Origin: a virus
Taxonomy: Duplodnaviria > Caudoviricetes
Virus record (IMG/VR): IMGVR_UViG_3300017716_000997
Span: 1,033-65,032 of that record
Direction: 5' to 3' (one strand)
DNA: 64,000 bases
The translations under genes and the position numbers were made by a program. Position 1 is the stretch's first letter; every line of letters starts with the position of its first letter. Below are positions 7,087 through 11,180 of the stretch, one piece after another. The notes beneath the pieces are model-generated. The model had not been told where the DNA came from. It did no database searches and saw nothing but the letters and a program-made list of their open reading frames with translations.

Positions 7087-7515
7087 CTAAGTTATACTAA
7101 CCGTTACTGTACCCACTTGTCCCATTGCAATCAAGTCATTTTCCGTTAAAACGGTATCAAACAACCTTGCACCACCAACTGGGTTAAAGCCCCATTGGAA
7201 GATTCTACTACCCATATCTGGGTTTCCTAACCCATCTGGACCAGTTCCACCATTAATGTCAATCTGCAAACCATTGGTGCCAGATTGCCAATAACTTACA
7301 TCAGGACGTGGATCCCGAACCGCTTGCGGATCGTTCACCGGATACATACCCAATTGTAACTGAGGTTGATCGGGGTTCCAACATGATTGACAAACTTTAA
7401 TCTTGAATGGTTTAGTCTTTACAACCTCATTTTTAAGATCCGAAAGCTTGTACCTAAAACCACATCGGTCACATTCCGCAATTGCGTACTTACCTGATGC
7501 AAATTGATTGGGCAT
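7087..7515 (-). CDS. Conserved hypothetical protein with CxxC...CxxC zinc ribbon
   Basis: ECDRCGF...VCQSCW; PQAVRDPRPD. Confidence 0.65.
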   Translation of the reverse strand: MPNQFASGKYAIAECDRCGFRYKLSDLKNEVVKTKPFKIKVCQSCWNPDQPQLQLGMYPVNDPQAVRDPRPDVSYWQSGTNGLQIDINGGTGPDGLGNPDMGSRIFQWGFNPVGGARLFDTVLTENDLIAMGQVGTVTVSIT

Positions 7516-7518
7516 ATC

Positions 7519-8445
7519 TTACCTTGCGTAGAACATATTCCGAGGTACAAAACGGATTGGAGCTTTCTCTCTATCCTCCTCAGCCGCCAACCTAAATTGT
7601 TCCTCATAATCCATCTTTAACATAGGAATACGGTTCATATCTACATCAGGAAGCTTGGTAGATAACTGATAAGCCAAGCCTGCAACCATGCAAGGAATGA
7701 AGCGGAATGGGATATCTTGTACATACACGCCAGTTCCAGCATCTTGAATGCGGCGTAAGCGGTAGTAAACGAATGTATATTGGCTGCCAGGAGAGCTAGG
7801 CGTAGGCCAGACATTAATGCATGGAAGGTTCTGTACAGTAACCGTAGCGTTAGCAGTATGAGCTGCAGCAGTAGTACCGTTTTGACCACGGGCGCAGTTG
7901 ATTAACTGGTTTCCGTTGATGTTTGGATAGCTAATTGTCTCGTTATCAATCTTAATAAATCCAGAAGAAGTTAACCCGCTTGTAGAAGTGAGATCAATAG
8001 TCGTTGCTGTAGAGCTTATATTAGCGCTTAAAAGGGCGTCTGAGAGGTTTTCTTGACCTGACTGACGGTTGATGTACACCTGAATCGGGCGCCCCTGTGC
8101 GAGCTTATTAGGCAGGCTCATGTAGGTCGGCTCTGCAATACGGCTAATATTGATGTCTATTTGGTTGGAAGTACCGTTATTTTGGCGGATAACCATGTCC
8201 ATAAGATCAATGGTATCTGCTGGGTATGGGTACATAGCCTGTCCTGTAACCATTGGAATCACGCCCTGTTCTACAGTCCACAGGTTAATACCACGGTTAG
8301 CCCATTCAATAGTCAATAAATTTAAGGAACGGCGGGCAGTACGGAAATCGTATCCAGTACGCAGCTCTTTGCCGCATCTCTCGAAGGCTTCTTCGATTAG
8401 ATCATTTACATCTAGATTAAATGCGGTTGTTCCAGTTGTTGCCAT
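7519..8445 (-). CDS. Tail tubular protein A / adaptor-like (308 aa)
   Basis: LIEEAFERCG...ARRSLNLLTIEWANRGINLW; VWPTP; DIPFRFIPCMVAGLAY; contains an inserted beta domain (see findings). Confidence 0.7.
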   Translation of the reverse strand: MATTGTTAFNLDVNDLIEEAFERCGKELRTGYDFRTARRSLNLLTIEWANRGINLWTVEQGVIPMVTGQAMYPYPADTIDLMDMVIRQNNGTSNQIDINISRIAEPTYMSLPNKLAQGRPIQVYINRQSGQENLSDALLSANISSTATTIDLTSTSGLTSSGFIKIDNETISYPNINGNQLINCARGQNGTTAAAHTANATVTVQNLPCINVWPTPSSPGSQYTFVYYRLRRIQDAGTGVYVQDIPFRFIPCMVAGLAYQLSTKLPDVDMNRIPMLKMDYEEQFRLAAEEDREKAPIRFVPRNMFYAR

Positions 8446-8696
8446 TATTTTTTCTTCGCTGTTTTAGCAGATTGCAAAAATGCCGCTTTAGTAGGCGCAC
8501 CCTTAGATCCAACAGGACGCATCTTTTCACCAGAGCCAGCCGCAATGCGCTTTTGCTTCGCATGAATATTTGCATATAGTCCAACTTTCCCACCTTCAGC
8601 AAACTGAGTAAAGTCTGTATTATCTCTACGGGGTTTCTTAGTGCCTTTAGGCATTTTAGAAGGAGCGATATCACCCATGCCACGAGATGGTCTCAT
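8445..8696 (-). CDS. Small basic protein (MRPSRGMG...)
   Basis: Start 8696 overlaps upstream TGA; FAEGGKV motif; K/R rich. Confidence 0.6.
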   Translation of the reverse strand: MRPSRGMGDIAPSKMPKGTKKPRRDNTDFTQFAEGGKVGLYANIHAKQKRIAAGSGEKMRPVGSKGAPTKAAFLQSAKTAKKK

Positions 8697-8932
8697 GCTC
8701 TTGTCTTTCCACGAATAGCACAACCGTCAGCACGGGCAGAGGCGGACTTTACTGAACCACCTTTTTTCATACCAGTTACATTACCCATTGTGTCAACAGC
8801 GGGAATGTTCTGTTCGGTAGTGCCAAAGCGCTCATACTCTTGCTGTTTTTCAGCACGAATACCACGTTCTTTATTGGCTTTGTAATAAGCCTCACGCTTT
8901 TCTTTTTGCTTACCAGTTTCTTCGTATGGCAT
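8693..8932 (-). CDS. Small basic protein
   Basis: Likely start MPYEE at 8932; MKKGGSV and RADGCAIRGKTRA motifs. Confidence 0.6.
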   Translation of the reverse strand: MPYEETGKQKEKREAYYKANKERGIRAEKQQEYERFGTTEQNIPAVDTMGNVTGMKKGGSVKSASARADGCAIRGKTRA

Positions 8933-8934
8933 GA

Positions 8935-9267
8935 TTAGCACATCCCGCCAGATTTCATCTTAACCATTGTACCTTTGGTATGACCTTTCATAACGCATCC
9001 GTCAGCACGGGTTACGCCACTTTTAGCCATTTTATGCATAGACTTTTCGTGAGCCTTAACTTCTTGCTTGGCTACTTTTTTCATCATTGGCATATCTTCT
9101 TTAATATCTGAATGTTTCATAGTTCCACCTTCCTTAAATTTCTTGCCTTTATCGGCAGTCATAAAATCTTTACCTACAGTCGTTGGGATGCCCACCTTTT
9201 TTGCAAAGCTTGGCGAGTGAGCGACTGCCGCCATTAAATTGTGTTGCTTCTTAGATACGCTAGGCAT
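8935..9267 (-). CDS. Small basic protein (110 aa)
   Basis: MPSVSKKQHNLMAAVAH; FKEGG, RADGCVMKGHTKG, MKSGGMC. Confidence 0.65.
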   Translation of the reverse strand: MPSVSKKQHNLMAAVAHSPSFAKKVGIPTTVGKDFMTADKGKKFKEGGTMKHSDIKEDMPMMKKVAKQEVKAHEKSMHKMAKSGVTRADGCVMKGHTKGTMVKMKSGGMC

Positions 9268-9509
9268 TATGCTTTCCTTAACTCATCAATTTTAGATTCT
9301 AATCTAGCAATACCAGCATCAAACCGTTCCATAATCTTTTCTAAATCTCGCTGTACTTCTGAACGAGTAATGTGTTCACGAGCAATTTCTTCACGGGTTC
9401 TGTTTAACAGAATACCAAGACGATCTAACTCTTCAAATTTACCTTTAAGCATAAAACCCATTACTGCGACAATTGCACTTAAAACAACATTCCATAGCAT
9501 CATTTCCAT
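9267..9509 (-). CDS. Small protein with N-terminal TM helix and coiled coil
   Basis: Start MEMMLW at 9509 (TGATG overlap); hydrophobic WNVVLSAIVAVMGFML followed by heptad-like helix. Confidence 0.65.
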   Translation of the reverse strand: MEMMLWNVVLSAIVAVMGFMLKGKFEELDRLGILLNRTREEIAREHITRSEVQRDLEKIMERFDAGIARLESKIDELRKA

Positions 9510-9769
9510 CACGGGCATTTCCATCGTTTCAGACTGGCTGCCTTACGGGTAGGGCGACCTTTCTCATCTTTCATTGGACCCGGCATCCCAGACATACGAG
9601 CGCAAAAAGATTTCTTTCGTGCGCCGCCTTCTGGCTGTGGGGCTTTTAAATTACTACCTGTTTTTGCATTATATGCTTTTCTACCTGCCGCAGTCATGCC
9701 AGCACCCTCTTTTGTACTAAGGTAATTTCTACCTTTTCCTTTGGTTGTTTTGCGTATTGGACTAGCCAT
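9509..9769 (-). CDS. Small basic protein (86 aa), apparent HNH target gene
   Basis: GAGMTAAGRKAYNAKTGSNLKAP...KKSFCARM...KAASLKRWKC. Confidence 0.7.
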   Translation of the reverse strand: MASPIRKTTKGKGRNYLSTKEGAGMTAAGRKAYNAKTGSNLKAPQPEGGARKKSFCARMSGMPGPMKDEKGRPTRKAASLKRWKCP

Positions 9770-10338
9770 TATGCAACCTCAAAATTGTTATTTTTTGAAA
9801 TATTATCAATACCACGCATAGCTCTTAAATTGCTAGGAACATGAAGTCCTGATACTAGCTTACCTTGTAATGGGATAATATGGTCTACATGCCAAGGTTC
9901 GCCAGTAATTTTAGTCTGTAGCGCCGCCAATTTATACTCATTTTGGATACGCTCTTTATCAATATCAGTAAGCCACGCAGGAGTTCTCTGAAGTTTAAAA
10001 GCTCTACGAGCTGCTTCGTATGCGGCAACCTTATCTAATCGACCTTTTTGTCTTAGTAATTGATTTATTTTTGATTTCTCATGATCAGCATAGTAATGTT
10101 TTAATGCTTGCTCTTGGCGTGATTCTTTGTTGCGCTGATACTCTGCTGCCCAATTTCTTTTGCTATCACTAGTTATACGCTTATGTTCTCTGCTACAAAA
10201 TCTAGCATTACTGCGCATATGACCAATGTTTATTCCACATAATTCACAAGCACGGCCTTTAGCGGTGAGGCCAGCCCCTTTCGAGACTGGAAGTTTCTCA
10301 CCACGCCCAACTGCAAGAGATGGGGTTTTCTTAGCCAT
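9769..10338 (-). CDS. HNH homing endonuclease
   Basis: Start MAKKTPS at 10338 overlaps upstream stop; CELC...FCSREH zinc motif, TPAWL, WHVDHIIPLQGKLVSGLHVPSNL...NISKNN. Confidence 0.85.
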   Translation of the reverse strand: MAKKTPSLAVGRGEKLPVSKGAGLTAKGRACELCGINIGHMRSNARFCSREHKRITSDSKRNWAAEYQRNKESRQEQALKHYYADHEKSKINQLLRQKGRLDKVAAYEAARRAFKLQRTPAWLTDIDKERIQNEYKLAALQTKITGEPWHVDHIIPLQGKLVSGLHVPSNLRAMRGIDNISKNNNFEVA

Positions 10339-10618
10339 AAAATACAGTAATGCTTGAGTTAGCTGGCAATGACACATAAACGCCATTATCAAAACGAACA
10401 CCTTCGCCCGGTATCAATGTAGCAATAACAGCCGTATTAGTGGTAACGTGAAGTGTTAATCGGTTTGTTCCAGTAGCAGAATTAGAAGTTGTATCATAAA
10501 ACTGAATCTCACCAGCGGTACCGCCGGGAGCTACTTGATAGCCTTTTACTCGTGTTGGACCAGAAAATACCGTAGCATTTCCATCTAAATGCGCTGCTTT
10601 AACGTCAGTTTGCATCAT
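10331..10618 (-). CDS. Small virion structural protein (95 aa)
   Basis: AGGAG RBS; MQTDVKAAHL...GPTRVKG...IPGEGVRFDNGVYV. Confidence 0.65.
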   Translation of the reverse strand: MMQTDVKAAHLDGNATVFSGPTRVKGYQVAPGGTAGEIQFYDTTSNSATGTNRLTLHVTTNTAVIATLIPGEGVRFDNGVYVSLPANSSITVFYG

Positions 10619-10642
10619 AATTAATCTCCTAAAGATGTAAGC

Positions 10643-10658
10643 GGGGGACGAATCCCCC
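10643..10658 (-). other. Intergenic GC-rich hairpin (GGGGGA-TTCG-TCCCCC)
   Basis: Perfect 6-bp stem with UUCG loop on minus strand; no U-tract, so more likely a stabiliser/processing site than a terminator. Confidence 0.5.
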
Positions 10659-10667
10659 TAAGATTAA

Positions 10668-11180
10668 TTAAACGTTTTGCTGACCGTTGTCCGCAACGTA
10701 GTAGCGAATAGACCCAGTTACAGGACCACCAACTGCACCAGCAGTACCAATAGCAGAAGTAACAACGATTAAGTTAGTTGCGTTTGCTACGTTACCTAAA
10801 GATGAACCACCACCTGTGCCACCGATTTGGATAGCTGTACGAGCAGTTAAGTTAGCGTTGTTAGTAAATGCGTTAGGAACGTTTGTGCCTAAAGTACCTG
10901 TTTGACCAGGACCTACGCCGATTAGTGGGGTAAACCCTATGTTACAAGTAGAGTTAGCACCTGTAGATGGGTTAGTAATGTTAACAGTCAATACAACAGC
11001 GTTAGCTGGCAAAATTAAAGCTGGAGCGTTAGTAGCAGAAGAAACTACTACGTTTGCAGTTGTAGATGATGTGTTAGCGATATAAAACTGGGCAACCATG
11101 TCCATCGAACCAGCATAAGCTGTACGAGTTGAGTCACCACCTGTTGAGCGCCATACGGCTGAGGTTGTTGCTAATGCCAT
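10668..11180 (-). CDS. Virion structural protein
   Basis: Likely start MALATTS at 11180 (AAGGA RBS); immediately after the capsid gene. Confidence 0.65.
   Translation of the reverse strand: MALATTSAVWRSTGGDSTRTAYAGSMDMVAQFYIANTSSTTANVVVSSATNAPALILPANAVVLTVNITNPSTGANSTCNIGFTPLIGVGPGQTGTLGTNVPNAFTNNANLTARTAIQIGGTGGGSSLGNVANATNLIVVTSAIGTAGAVGGPVTGSIRYYVADNGQQNV

Follow-up and report, generated by a model that had tools for sequence, protein, structure and literature searches.

An HNH nuclease reading frame that appears to use the old start of a freshwater phage gene and to bring a replacement: a candidate intron-less homing element

The window analyzed here is a 64,000-nucleotide stretch from a virus of the class Caudoviricetes (IMG/VR record IMGVR_UViG_3300017716_000997). 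At the locus under study, all genes lie on the minus strand, and an HNH open reading frame (ORF) is found between a gene of the structural module and a DUF6321 gene. Two kinds of 5' end of DUF6321 genes are distinguished throughout, the A-type (MAKK...GAGLTAKGRA) and the B-type (MASPIRK-type). The features of the locus are as follows.

10331-10618, minus strand: upstream structural-module gene of 95 aa (phrog_28102), the stop of which overlaps the captured start
10332-10338, minus strand: ATGGCTA at the old start, 7 bases that are repeated at the new start (9763-9769)
10249-10338, minus strand: A-fragment, the first 30 codons of the resident DUF6321 gene (MAKKTPSLAVGRGEKLPVSKGAGLTAKGRA), serving as N-terminus of the HNH ORF
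9769-10248, minus strand: HNH nuclease body, 159 codons plus stop (CELCG...WHVDHIIPLQGKLVSGLHVPSNL...DNISKNN...FEVA), recognized by PHROG profiles and motif
9769-10338, minus strand: fusion ORF of 189 aa, consisting of A-fragment and HNH body in frame
9777-9780, minus strand: GAGG Shine-Dalgarno of the DUF6321 gene, located in the final codons of the HNH (F-E-V) and 7 nt ahead of the ATG at 9767-9769
9677-9769, minus strand: B-type replacement 5' end of the DUF6321 gene, 31 codons (MASPIRKTTKGKGRNYLSTKEGAGMTAAGRK), recognized by identity among HNH-bearing loci
9509-9676, minus strand: DUF6321 gene body (...TGSNLKAPQPEGGARKKSFCARMSG...RWKCP), common to A-type and B-type alleles (Pfam PF19846) and presumed to be the right-hand homology arm

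The fusion ORF starts at an ATG (10336-10338) that overlaps the stop of the upstream gene (ATGGCTAA, 10331-10338), and its N-terminal segment is followed by CELCG...WHVDHIIPL...N...N, an HNH motif. At its other end, the TAA overlaps the ATG of the downstream gene (TAATG, 9767-9771). This downstream gene (9509-9769) is a complete DUF6321 gene of 86 aa with a B-type start (PF19846 at E 1.5e-22, 80.4 bits against a cut-off of 28.5, residues 23-83) and is present as a single copy in the 65-kb genome. Of 25 HNH relatives, 17 have a Shine-Dalgarno-like core (GAGG or GGAG; TGAGGT in 15) located 6-9 nt ahead of the start of the downstream gene, and an 18th such site follows the stop. The nuclease and the host-gene codons adjoin with nothing inserted between them. 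No Rfam match at E <= 1 was obtained for positions 9300-10700, in a search that a novel ribozyme could escape; with no such match, and with a downstream gene that has its own Shine-Dalgarno and ATG, an intron or intein was considered unlikely. An assembly chimera was ruled out, since no fewer than 17 distinct contigs, together with contigs from three further studies, have the same architecture.

Profile searches with the HNH body gave the strongest match to phrog_26577 (function unknown; E 3.2e-17), and the nuclease-annotated matches were phrog_1035 (endonuclease VII; E 3.7e-10) and two HNH endonuclease families, phrog_8660 (E 3.9e-4) and phrog_1271 (E 4.4e-3). The Pfam HNH profile PF01844 matched the ORF at E 0.032 with 14.8 bits, below the 21.4-bit cut-off, and neither the NCBIfam search nor the PDB sequence profile search returned a match. 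Residues W149, H150, V151, D152, H153, N170, and N179 are invariant in 26 relatives. An AlphaFold2 model (mean pLDDT 73.6) has strands at residues 149-153 and 171-175 and a helix at 176-180, with a pLDDT below 50 for residues 1-27, the captured head. A Foldseek search gave nothing at E <= 0.001, its top rows being HNH domains (ZRANB3, Cas9 HNH, and Gme) at E about 2, and a wide VIA-align search, in which long helices dominated, returned coiled-coil-like rows with Z below 5. The assignment as a putative HNH nuclease is thus based on the PHROG profiles and the motif. The HNH body always comprises 159 codons and, with dN/dS values of 0.06-0.25, is under purifying selection. In a phylogenetic tree, the HNHs of the cassettes form one clade (99/98 support) beside free-standing relatives. 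A packaging-type HNH acting as a terminase partner was ruled out, since the gene is sporadic among close relatives and is located in the head-tail module, not beside terminase.

An earlier note on this DNA, made from the window alone, had proposed that the HNH ORF consists of the start of the neighboring gene fused to an HNH domain, and that the ancestral gene was split after TAKGRA. Both claims were borne out by two HNH-less siblings (L090 and L091), in which the upstream gene is 99-100% identical at the nucleotide level and the first 30 codons are identical to those of the window at 89 of 90 nucleotides. These siblings carry the uninterrupted gene, MAKK...GAGLTAKGRA joined directly to KYN...TGSNLKAP, as the earlier note had predicted for HNH-less relatives, and the homology of the window to them ends exactly at codon 30 and restarts approximately 572 bases later. 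The intact A-type gene was found in 25 distinct HNH-less loci, these siblings included. Since the right flank of the window is 84% identical to that of L090, this sibling is not isogenic with the window. The duplicated N-terminus, which had also been read as the sign of a split gene, needs some qualification: the split itself stands, but the two N-termini of the window are only weakly alike when compared directly (BLASTP E 0.013, 8/14 identities), and this comparison is insufficient by itself for the claim of a captured start. The proof comes from other phages, in which intact DUF6321 proteins have N-termini with 70-85% identity (tblastn E 2e-6 to 2e-4) to the 30-residue N-terminal segment of the fusion ORF. 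At the DNA level, the 5' codons of A-type and B-type genes are ~46% identical. Between the A-type gene of L090 and the B-type gene of the window, 14 of 36 nucleotides are identical in codons 25-36, and the central 40 bases of the two allele consensuses agree at 23 positions; by codons 41-50, A-type and B-type genes are identical at 29 of 30 nucleotides. The replaced tract extends past the 31 B-type codons through AYNAK to approximately 9654-9661, as the near-identity of the window with another HNH-bearing locus (L223) stops near 9654 and the break in A/B homology in a metagenome contig falls at 9661|9662.

The cassette behaves as a discrete block in comparisons among HNH-bearing loci. In four of these (L223, L010, L011, and L013), the HNH body and the B-type start are each 97-99% identical to the window at the nucleotide level, whereas identity is 74-81% in the A-fragment and 83-88% in the gene body; the upstream gene of other HNH-bearing loci is only 75% identical to that of the window or undetectable. 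The high-identity block, ~572-590 bp in size, stops exactly at both cassette edges in the four backgrounds. The B-type start thus travels together with the HNH and the native 30 codons are kept upstream, which agrees with the proposal that the diverged new 5' end moves with the nuclease and not with the host gene. A B-type gene follows the HNH in every one of the 17 cassettes found, and an A-type gene in none; among close relatives the HNH is present or absent sporadically at this one site. Three further studies yielded DNA contigs with the cassette, differing from the window at few positions (11 over 710 nt in one contig, 5 over 467 nt in another). A second contig (run X2) had a window-like gene body joined directly to ...AKGRAKYNKA, which is the uninterrupted A-type allele, and so the HNH-bearing and uninterrupted alleles coexist in one independent lake metagenome. 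Among cultured phages, a nucleotide search with the region found only short matches of 70-75% in cyanophages, within the DUF6321 body, and nothing closely related.

As noted, the ORF of the window begins with the old start of the host gene. The same architecture and frame are kept in fused HNH variants down to 58-63% amino acid identity, the captured piece has undergone two independent internal deletions (L173 type and L183 type) that both preserve the frame, and the fused form offers no alternative start ahead of the first CxxC; from these three observations we infer, with good support, that the HNH is translated from the captured old start. At the same site in L207 and L231, the HNH has its own N-terminal segment of ~41 residues with its own ATG or GTG, and this N-terminus is of the MP(Y)KD.E.RK type, resembling the sister clade. 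Fusion to the old start therefore looks secondary, as far as these comparisons go. The HNH tree places the unfused L231 together with the fused L226 (96/95), so that a simple order from unfused to fused needs two fusions or recombination between cassettes. Among 71 further HNH relatives screened for N-terminal similarity to the downstream gene, there was one clear case, L082 (z 8.5), and no other case above z 3.2. In L082, which belongs to the same HNH family, the first 10 codons of a 746-aa gene appear to have been captured, hinting that this is an independent second start capture and that the strategy may be general.

Overall, the locus is probably best explained as a homing element that uses neither intron nor intein, sits inside a coding gene, and carries a replacement gene start. 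The mobile unit would consist of a start-less HNH ORF of 159 codons and the first 31-36 codons of a B-type DUF6321 allele, with the last HNH codons encoding the GAGG ribosome-binding site and overlapping the ATG of the next gene. Landing after codon 30 of a resident A-type DUF6321 gene, it would leave these 30 codons behind, from which the nuclease would gain an ATG, coupling of its translation to the upstream gene, and a disordered tag at its N-terminus, and the imported B-type codons together with the resident gene body would yield a full-length DUF6321 protein. During co-infection, the nuclease is predicted to cut or nick the uninterrupted A-type allele near codon 30, and repair would copy the cassette from the HNH-bearing genome, with homology arms provided by the first 90 bases of the gene, together with DNA upstream of them, and by the conserved body. 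The B-type stretch would escape cutting and protect the carrier, since its DNA is only ~40-55% identical around the junction. As to history, a free-standing HNH with its own N-terminal segment and start may have inserted at the site, a state kept in L207 and L231; loss of this segment and in-frame fusion of the HNH to the 30 captured codons would then have given the form seen in the window, and the captured piece may have been shortened in frame in some lineages. Recombination between the two ATGGCTA copies probably deletes the A-fragment together with the HNH, which would leave an HNH-less, immune B-type gene.

The polarity of the event could also be the reverse, with a resident B-type gene at whose start codon the A-fragment and HNH entered together. 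The 30 A-type codons would then be baggage from the donor, and the target of the nuclease would be the B-type start region or the upstream junction. A degenerate DNA pattern scan for B-type starts bears on this, as it found them on HNH-less DUF6321 genes of more distant phages at 28 distinct loci. The earlier note had named such a MASPIRK version in HNH-less relatives as counter-evidence to its own proposal; it is present in distant relatives but absent in close ones. B-type alleles are thus widespread without the HNH, and the replacement is a natural allele and not an invention of the cassette. In addition, an HNH-less B-type locus (L191) and an HNH-bearing one (L200) share the upstream gene and the TAATGGC coupling, and two further HNH-less B-type loci (L233 and L230) share the upstream gene and the TAATGGC/ATGGCTA coupling with HNH-bearing L222, so that in those lineages the gain is equally readable as insertion of an A-fragment and HNH before a B-type gene. 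For the window, the identities point the other way: its A-fragment follows the HNH-less sibling and is far less similar in the loci that share its HNH, while its B-type start follows those HNH-sharing loci. The A-fragment thus appears to be resident and the B-type start imported, at least in the recent spread, and the contig of run X2 has the A-type allele on a window-like gene body. We regard the reversed polarity as unlikely.

Replacement-carrying homing also has to be weighed against an HNH that entered once and has since been inherited passively, shuffled by ordinary homologous recombination between co-infecting phages, and that is inactive or kept for another use such as interference with competing phages. 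The phage genomes of this group are highly mosaic, with abrupt changes of flank identity, and an intron-encoded endonuclease has been reported to serve phage-phage competition (PMC11620839). However, random recombination predicts otherwise than block edges that match the cassette edges in four backgrounds, and the intact HNH motif columns, the constant length, the low dN/dS, and the sporadic distribution speak against a relic; homing and a role in competition could well go together, so that the latter would be no substitute for the former. Such a relic is, in our judgment, quite improbable. Finally, the HNH could have destroyed the first of two tandem DUF6321 copies, the downstream gene being the second paralogue. 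Two N-terminal types do exist in nature and small basic genes of this kind are often clustered, but none of about 220 loci has two full DUF6321 genes in tandem, the HNH-less siblings carry just one DUF6321 gene, of the A-type and with a body continuous with the gene body of the window, and of the supposed first copy just 30 codons exist, the body being present once. With no tandem pair in any locus, this reading was rejected as having hardly any chance of being correct.

The closest parallels to the proposed homing element come from fungi. The WHO ('weird HO') elements at FBA1 in Torulaspora and Lachancea yeasts are described by their authors as a third category of homing element (PMC7282813; bioRxiv 10.64898/2026.08.13.744650). 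A WHO element likewise combines an endonuclease gene with an alternative copy of a host-gene segment, which upon integration takes the place of the resident segment so that the gene is not disrupted; the alleles differ in sensitivity (presumably also here), and neither intron nor intein is involved. WHO elements carry a LAGLIDADG nuclease in the eukaryotic nucleus, in contrast to the putative HNH nuclease of a phage, and the two nuclease families are unrelated; in our element, it is the first 31-36 codons that would be replaced, and the displaced 5' piece is apparently reused as the start of the nuclease. In fungal mitochondria, the mORF 'gene hybrids' (atp6 of Allomyces macrogynus; atp6, atp9, cox2, and nad3 of Glomus) comprise an endonuclease ORF that moves with a foreign copy of a host-gene end and is in some cases in phase with the host gene (PMC3630166). 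There, too, the displaced native end is closest to the sister species and the inserted end is divergent, the same identity logic as used here (PMC3630166). The mORFs are mitochondrial, belong to other endonuclease families, and replace the C-terminal end, with the native piece downstream (PMC3630166), whereas our locus is the mirror image, with a captured host start codon and a cassette-borne ribosome-binding site. Given the HNH-type nuclease and the tailed-phage host, the element would work like the WHO/mORF class without being a member of those families.

Among phages, the T4-like group has free-standing seg (GIY-YIG) and mob (HNH) genes that spread by 'intronless homing', as well as the mobA / gene 60 bypass cassette (PMC2988022; bioRxiv 10.1101/2022.08.31.505936). 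These, too, are promoter-less nuclease cassettes that overlap their neighbors, use upstream signals, and spread by cutting element-less alleles, cutting being what we likewise suppose here; some split host genes, and mobA travels with sequence altering the host gene. In T4, the host gene is either intact beside the endonuclease gene or split into two polypeptides, whereas here it is whole owing to the substitute 5' end contributed by the cassette, with the nuclease as a translational fusion to the old start. The T4 review among these sources makes no mention of duplicated or replacement gene ends. In a limited literature search, we found no published example of a phage homing endonuclease with a replacement gene end, and DUF6321 was not found in any paper. 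The replacement-end layout is known from fungal mitochondria and yeasts, and what appears to be new is its setting in a freshwater phage.

In phages, homing endonucleases are generally believed to depend on an intron, an intein, or an intergenic site in order to spare their carrier. The element described here would represent a third route into a coding gene, in which a substitute gene start is imported and the original start is taken over for the nuclease. It is conceivable, with the chances somewhat short of even, that this HNH family is the phage counterpart of the 'third category' (WHO/mORF type), specialized for the 5' ends of genes and driving allele replacement. If so, the conserved C-terminal F-E-V codons would double as the ribosome-binding site and start region of any next gene, the element would take over the start codon of its victim, and loss of the nuclease between the two ATGGCTA starts would leave a population with the immune B-type allele. 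Because alleles with and without the element, exact block edges, an earlier stage without fusion, and later stages of decay are all at hand, the homing hypothesis is directly testable. For annotation, the 30-aa head would mislead domain calls and chimeric 5' ends would distort gene phylogenies, and for phage mosaicism, the cassette would mark where genetic exchange has a boundary. If the family does drive allele replacement, the two forms (A and B) of the DUF6321 N-terminus among freshwater phages would be the footprint of past drives, and dimorphic N-termini of small conserved phage proteins may be the scars of such drives.

The phage, placed by its capsid protein in the freshwater HTVC023P / Pag-Yong1-like podovirus group (64-71% amino acid identity), carries a single DUF6321 gene in its 65-kb IMG/VR genome, arranged as follows.

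10331-10618, minus strand: 95-aa structural-module gene; its terminal TAA overlaps the ATG of the 189-aa ORF
9769-10338, minus strand: 189-aa ORF (30 captured codons plus HNH); its TAA overlaps the ATG of the 86-aa gene
9509-9769, minus strand: 86-aa DUF6321 gene (PF19846, 80 bits, residues 23-83)

Compared directly with the N-terminus of the DUF6321 gene in the window, the head of the HNH ORF showed a marginal likeness (E 0.013). The 30-aa head alone matched the N-termini of intact DUF6321 proteins of unrelated phages at 70-85% identity (among others DSL-LC05, Venkman, Manatee Spring contigs and S-CRES3, and also the C-terminal DUF6321 domain of S-CRM01 g34), bearing out the earlier note, which took it for a piece of the target gene. 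These proteins run ...GAGLT(A/E)KGR(A/R/K) and then directly into a linker rich in K/R and ...GSNLKAP; DSL-LC05 and Venkman, for example, read ...AKGRAKYNR.TGS. Since the head matches intact N-termini elsewhere, it is the canonical start of one N-terminal kind of the family (A-type); the DUF6321 gene in the window has a different one (B-type).

A set of 80 IMG/VR loci was retrieved via the upstream 95-aa gene. The closest relatives, L090 and L091 (upstream gene 99-100% identical in nucleotides), lack the HNH and have one unbroken gene at this position, MAKKTPSLAVGRGEKLPVSKGAGLTAKGRA|KYNKATGSNLKAPQPEGG..., as the key prediction of the earlier note required; an intact A-type gene was present in 25 distinct loci without HNH. 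The DNA of L090 and L091 tracks the window through the end of codon 30 (89/90 bases identical over this stretch), and homology returns after ~572 bases. The A-type gene of L090 and the B-type gene of the window agree at 29/30 nucleotides of codons 41-50, but at only ~46% of those in codons 1-36 and at 14/36 in the 12 codons on either side of the junction. Near the junction, 27 distinct A-type alleles are conserved at codon positions 1 and 2 and variable at position 3; a conserved coding site with variable third positions is the usual kind of homing endonuclease target. The resident sequence in the window stops no more than 4 bases short of the junction, which suggests that the break, or the place where conversion began, is near the insertion point. 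The nuclease would be expected to cleave the A-type target, and the B-type start to confer immunity. Contigs from three metagenome runs (X2, X3 and X4) connect ~10345 to 10598-10602, so that ~252-256 bases (window 10346-10597), most of the 95-aa gene, are missing, with one-side support of 20 bases only; they may derive from relatives in which this gene is absent or replaced.

The filled architecture (A-type head, HNH, stop/start overlap, B-type start) was found in 17 distinct loci, with HNH proteins from 99% down to 58% identical and a B-type consensus of MA(S/N)(P/Q)I.KTTKGKGRN(Y/F)LSTKEGAGMT..GRKAYNAK.... Segment identities were measured in four backgrounds.

Nucleotide identity to the window in L223, L010, L011 and L013
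95-aa gene farther upstream: 75%, or no alignment
30 A-type codons, just upstream of the HNH body: 74-81%
HNH body: 97-99%
31 B-type codons: 97-99%
DUF6321 gene body, just downstream: 83-88%

By base-level alignment, the left edge of the shared block is the junction between the A-type codons and the HNH, and the right edge lies ~15-23 bases past the B-type codons (window ~9654-9661). By these identities and edges, the mobile element includes the replacement start, and the 30 codons of the head are those of the invaded genome. The cassette also occurs with few differences in contigs from three other lake-metagenome studies (710 nt with 11 differences; 467 nt with 5). Another X2 contig joins a window-like gene body at 9661|9662 directly to ...AKGRAKYNKA, the uninterrupted allele; as both alleles are on X2 contigs, they coexist in one community.

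The main rival explanation is that the A-fragment plus HNH was inserted ahead of a B-type gene. B-type genes without any HNH do occur, in 28 distinct loci and several genomic contexts (a degenerate DNA pattern for KGKGRNYLSTKEGAGMT recovered 66 loci), and some lie behind the same upstream gene as HNH-bearing relatives (L191 vs L200; L233 and L230 vs L222) with the same TAATGGC/ATGGCTA coupling, as the rival would have it. In the lineage of the window, however, the rival is contradicted by the divergence of the A-type codons next to near-identical HNH and B-type segments. The proposal that the HNH captured the N-terminus of its target and brought a replacement is supported, with the correction that the replacement is a pre-existing allele type. 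ATGGCTA opens both starts in the window (10332-10338 and 9763-9769), and if the stretch between the two copies were deleted, the A-fragment and HNH would be lost and the remaining B-type gene would be free of the HNH yet immune. The B-type start of HNH-less L191 is 97% identical to that of HNH-bearing L186, with flanks at 76%. A cycle of gain, fixation and loss of the cassette would fit, its direction being inferred.

The 189-aa ORF matched HNH / endonuclease VII profiles of PHROG from ~residue 29 on (phrog_1035, E 3.7e-10; phrog_8660, E 3.9e-4), the Pfam HNH score falling under its cut-off, and it has the WHVDH...N...N columns that are invariant in its family. Every cassette HNH body has a length of exactly 159 codons; dN/dS is 0.06-0.25 (diverged pairs, window as reference), and the bodies form one clade (support 99/98) adjoining free-standing relatives. 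In an AlphaFold2 model built from a 26-sequence alignment, pLDDT was <50 for residues 1-27, block means were 67-93 over 31-180 and the overall mean was 73.6; given the low values for residues 1-27, the captured piece is predicted to be a floppy tag on the nuclease. Fold searches with the model returned nothing informative. In the window the captured ATG is the sole ATG/GTG/TTG ahead of the first CxxC, the frame is intact in all fused variants, and two different internal head deletions are both in frame (MAKKTVSLAVGRG|CELCG and MAKKNPSLAVNRI|CELCG), pointing to translation of the nuclease from the captured start. In L207 and L231, the A-type gene is severed at the same place and stops after a few stray codons, and the HNH that follows has a start codon of its own (GTG or ATG) and ~41 native N-terminal residues (MPYKD.E.RK...) that resemble the N-terminus of the sister clade. 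The unfused form is probably the earlier, and fusion a later deletion; use of the old start, as first proposed, thus stands as a probably secondary state. Since unfused L231 groups with fused L226 in the HNH tree, either cassettes recombined or fusion would have happened more than once.

At the 3' end of the HNH gene, the last codons F-E-V (TTT GAG GTT) set GAGG (9777-9780) 7 bases ahead of the downstream ATG. Across the terminal 30 bases of the HNH ORFs in relatives L010-L089, 17/25 family members have an SD-like core (GAGG/GGAG; TGAGGT in 15) 6-9 bases before the next start, which always overlaps, or sits within, the HNH 3' end, so that the family supplies translation signals (SD and start region) to the neighboring gene. 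Most of these relatives lie directly 5' of homologues of the window gene at 7087-7515 (MPxKYASGKxxIAECDRCG...). A related HNH (L082:2728-3300, IMGVR_UViG_3300032224_000353; 35% identity in the family alignment; also in L074 and L081) opens with MAYDQSSMNI, the first 10 codons of the following 746-aa gene (27/30 nt, 3 synonymous changes), which starts inside the HNH 3' end; this is a second, independent start capture in the same HNH family. In L131, L133 and L149 (at 3.0-3.5 kb), a second, more distant HNH of this family (33-40% amino acid identity) lies ~1 kb ahead of the homologue of the 95-aa gene and the DUF6321 cassette is absent, so the structural module has several alternative HNH insertion sites.

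In Synechococcus phage S-B28 (L008:2408-2761), the annotated DUF6321 protein has an unrelated 60-aa N-terminal part (...LGPGIYFWVDSP...) that meets the body of the family at the equivalent position (..ARE|KYNRETGSNLKAP), so codon 30 may be a recurrent module boundary of these genes. Fusions of the small basic neighbors at 8445-8723 and 8935-9267 (GLYANIHAKQ.RI..GSGEKMR.PGSKGAPT; MPS.SKKQH..M) occur elsewhere (L024, L178): the two are found fused to each other, and one 131-aa ORF of L024 joins the first, GLYANIHAKQ type to DUF6321. Some large proteins (phrog_10346, phrog_3477, S-CRM01 g34) likewise end in DUF6321. All these look like modules that have been shuffled among virion-associated proteins.

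The phage cassette is a functional mirror image of two known systems. In mitochondrial mORF gene hybrids, an endonuclease ORF comes with a foreign C-terminus that displaces the native one (PMC3630166), and yeast WHO elements pair an endonuclease gene with an alternative FBA1 3' half and were described as a third class of homing element, next to introns and inteins, by the authors who reported them (PMC7282813; bioRxiv 10.64898/2026.08.13.744650). Because its nuclease is an HNH and its host a phage, the cassette belongs to neither family. Like the seg and mob genes of T4, it is promoter-less, overlaps its neighbors and is free-standing in style; for the T4 genes a review mentions no duplicated or replacement gene ends, and our literature search found no phage homing endonuclease with a replacement gene end. 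Overall, the layout is confirmed and the homing interpretation supported with the two corrections made here, and the locus is a particularly clean natural example of the replacement-end homing layout.
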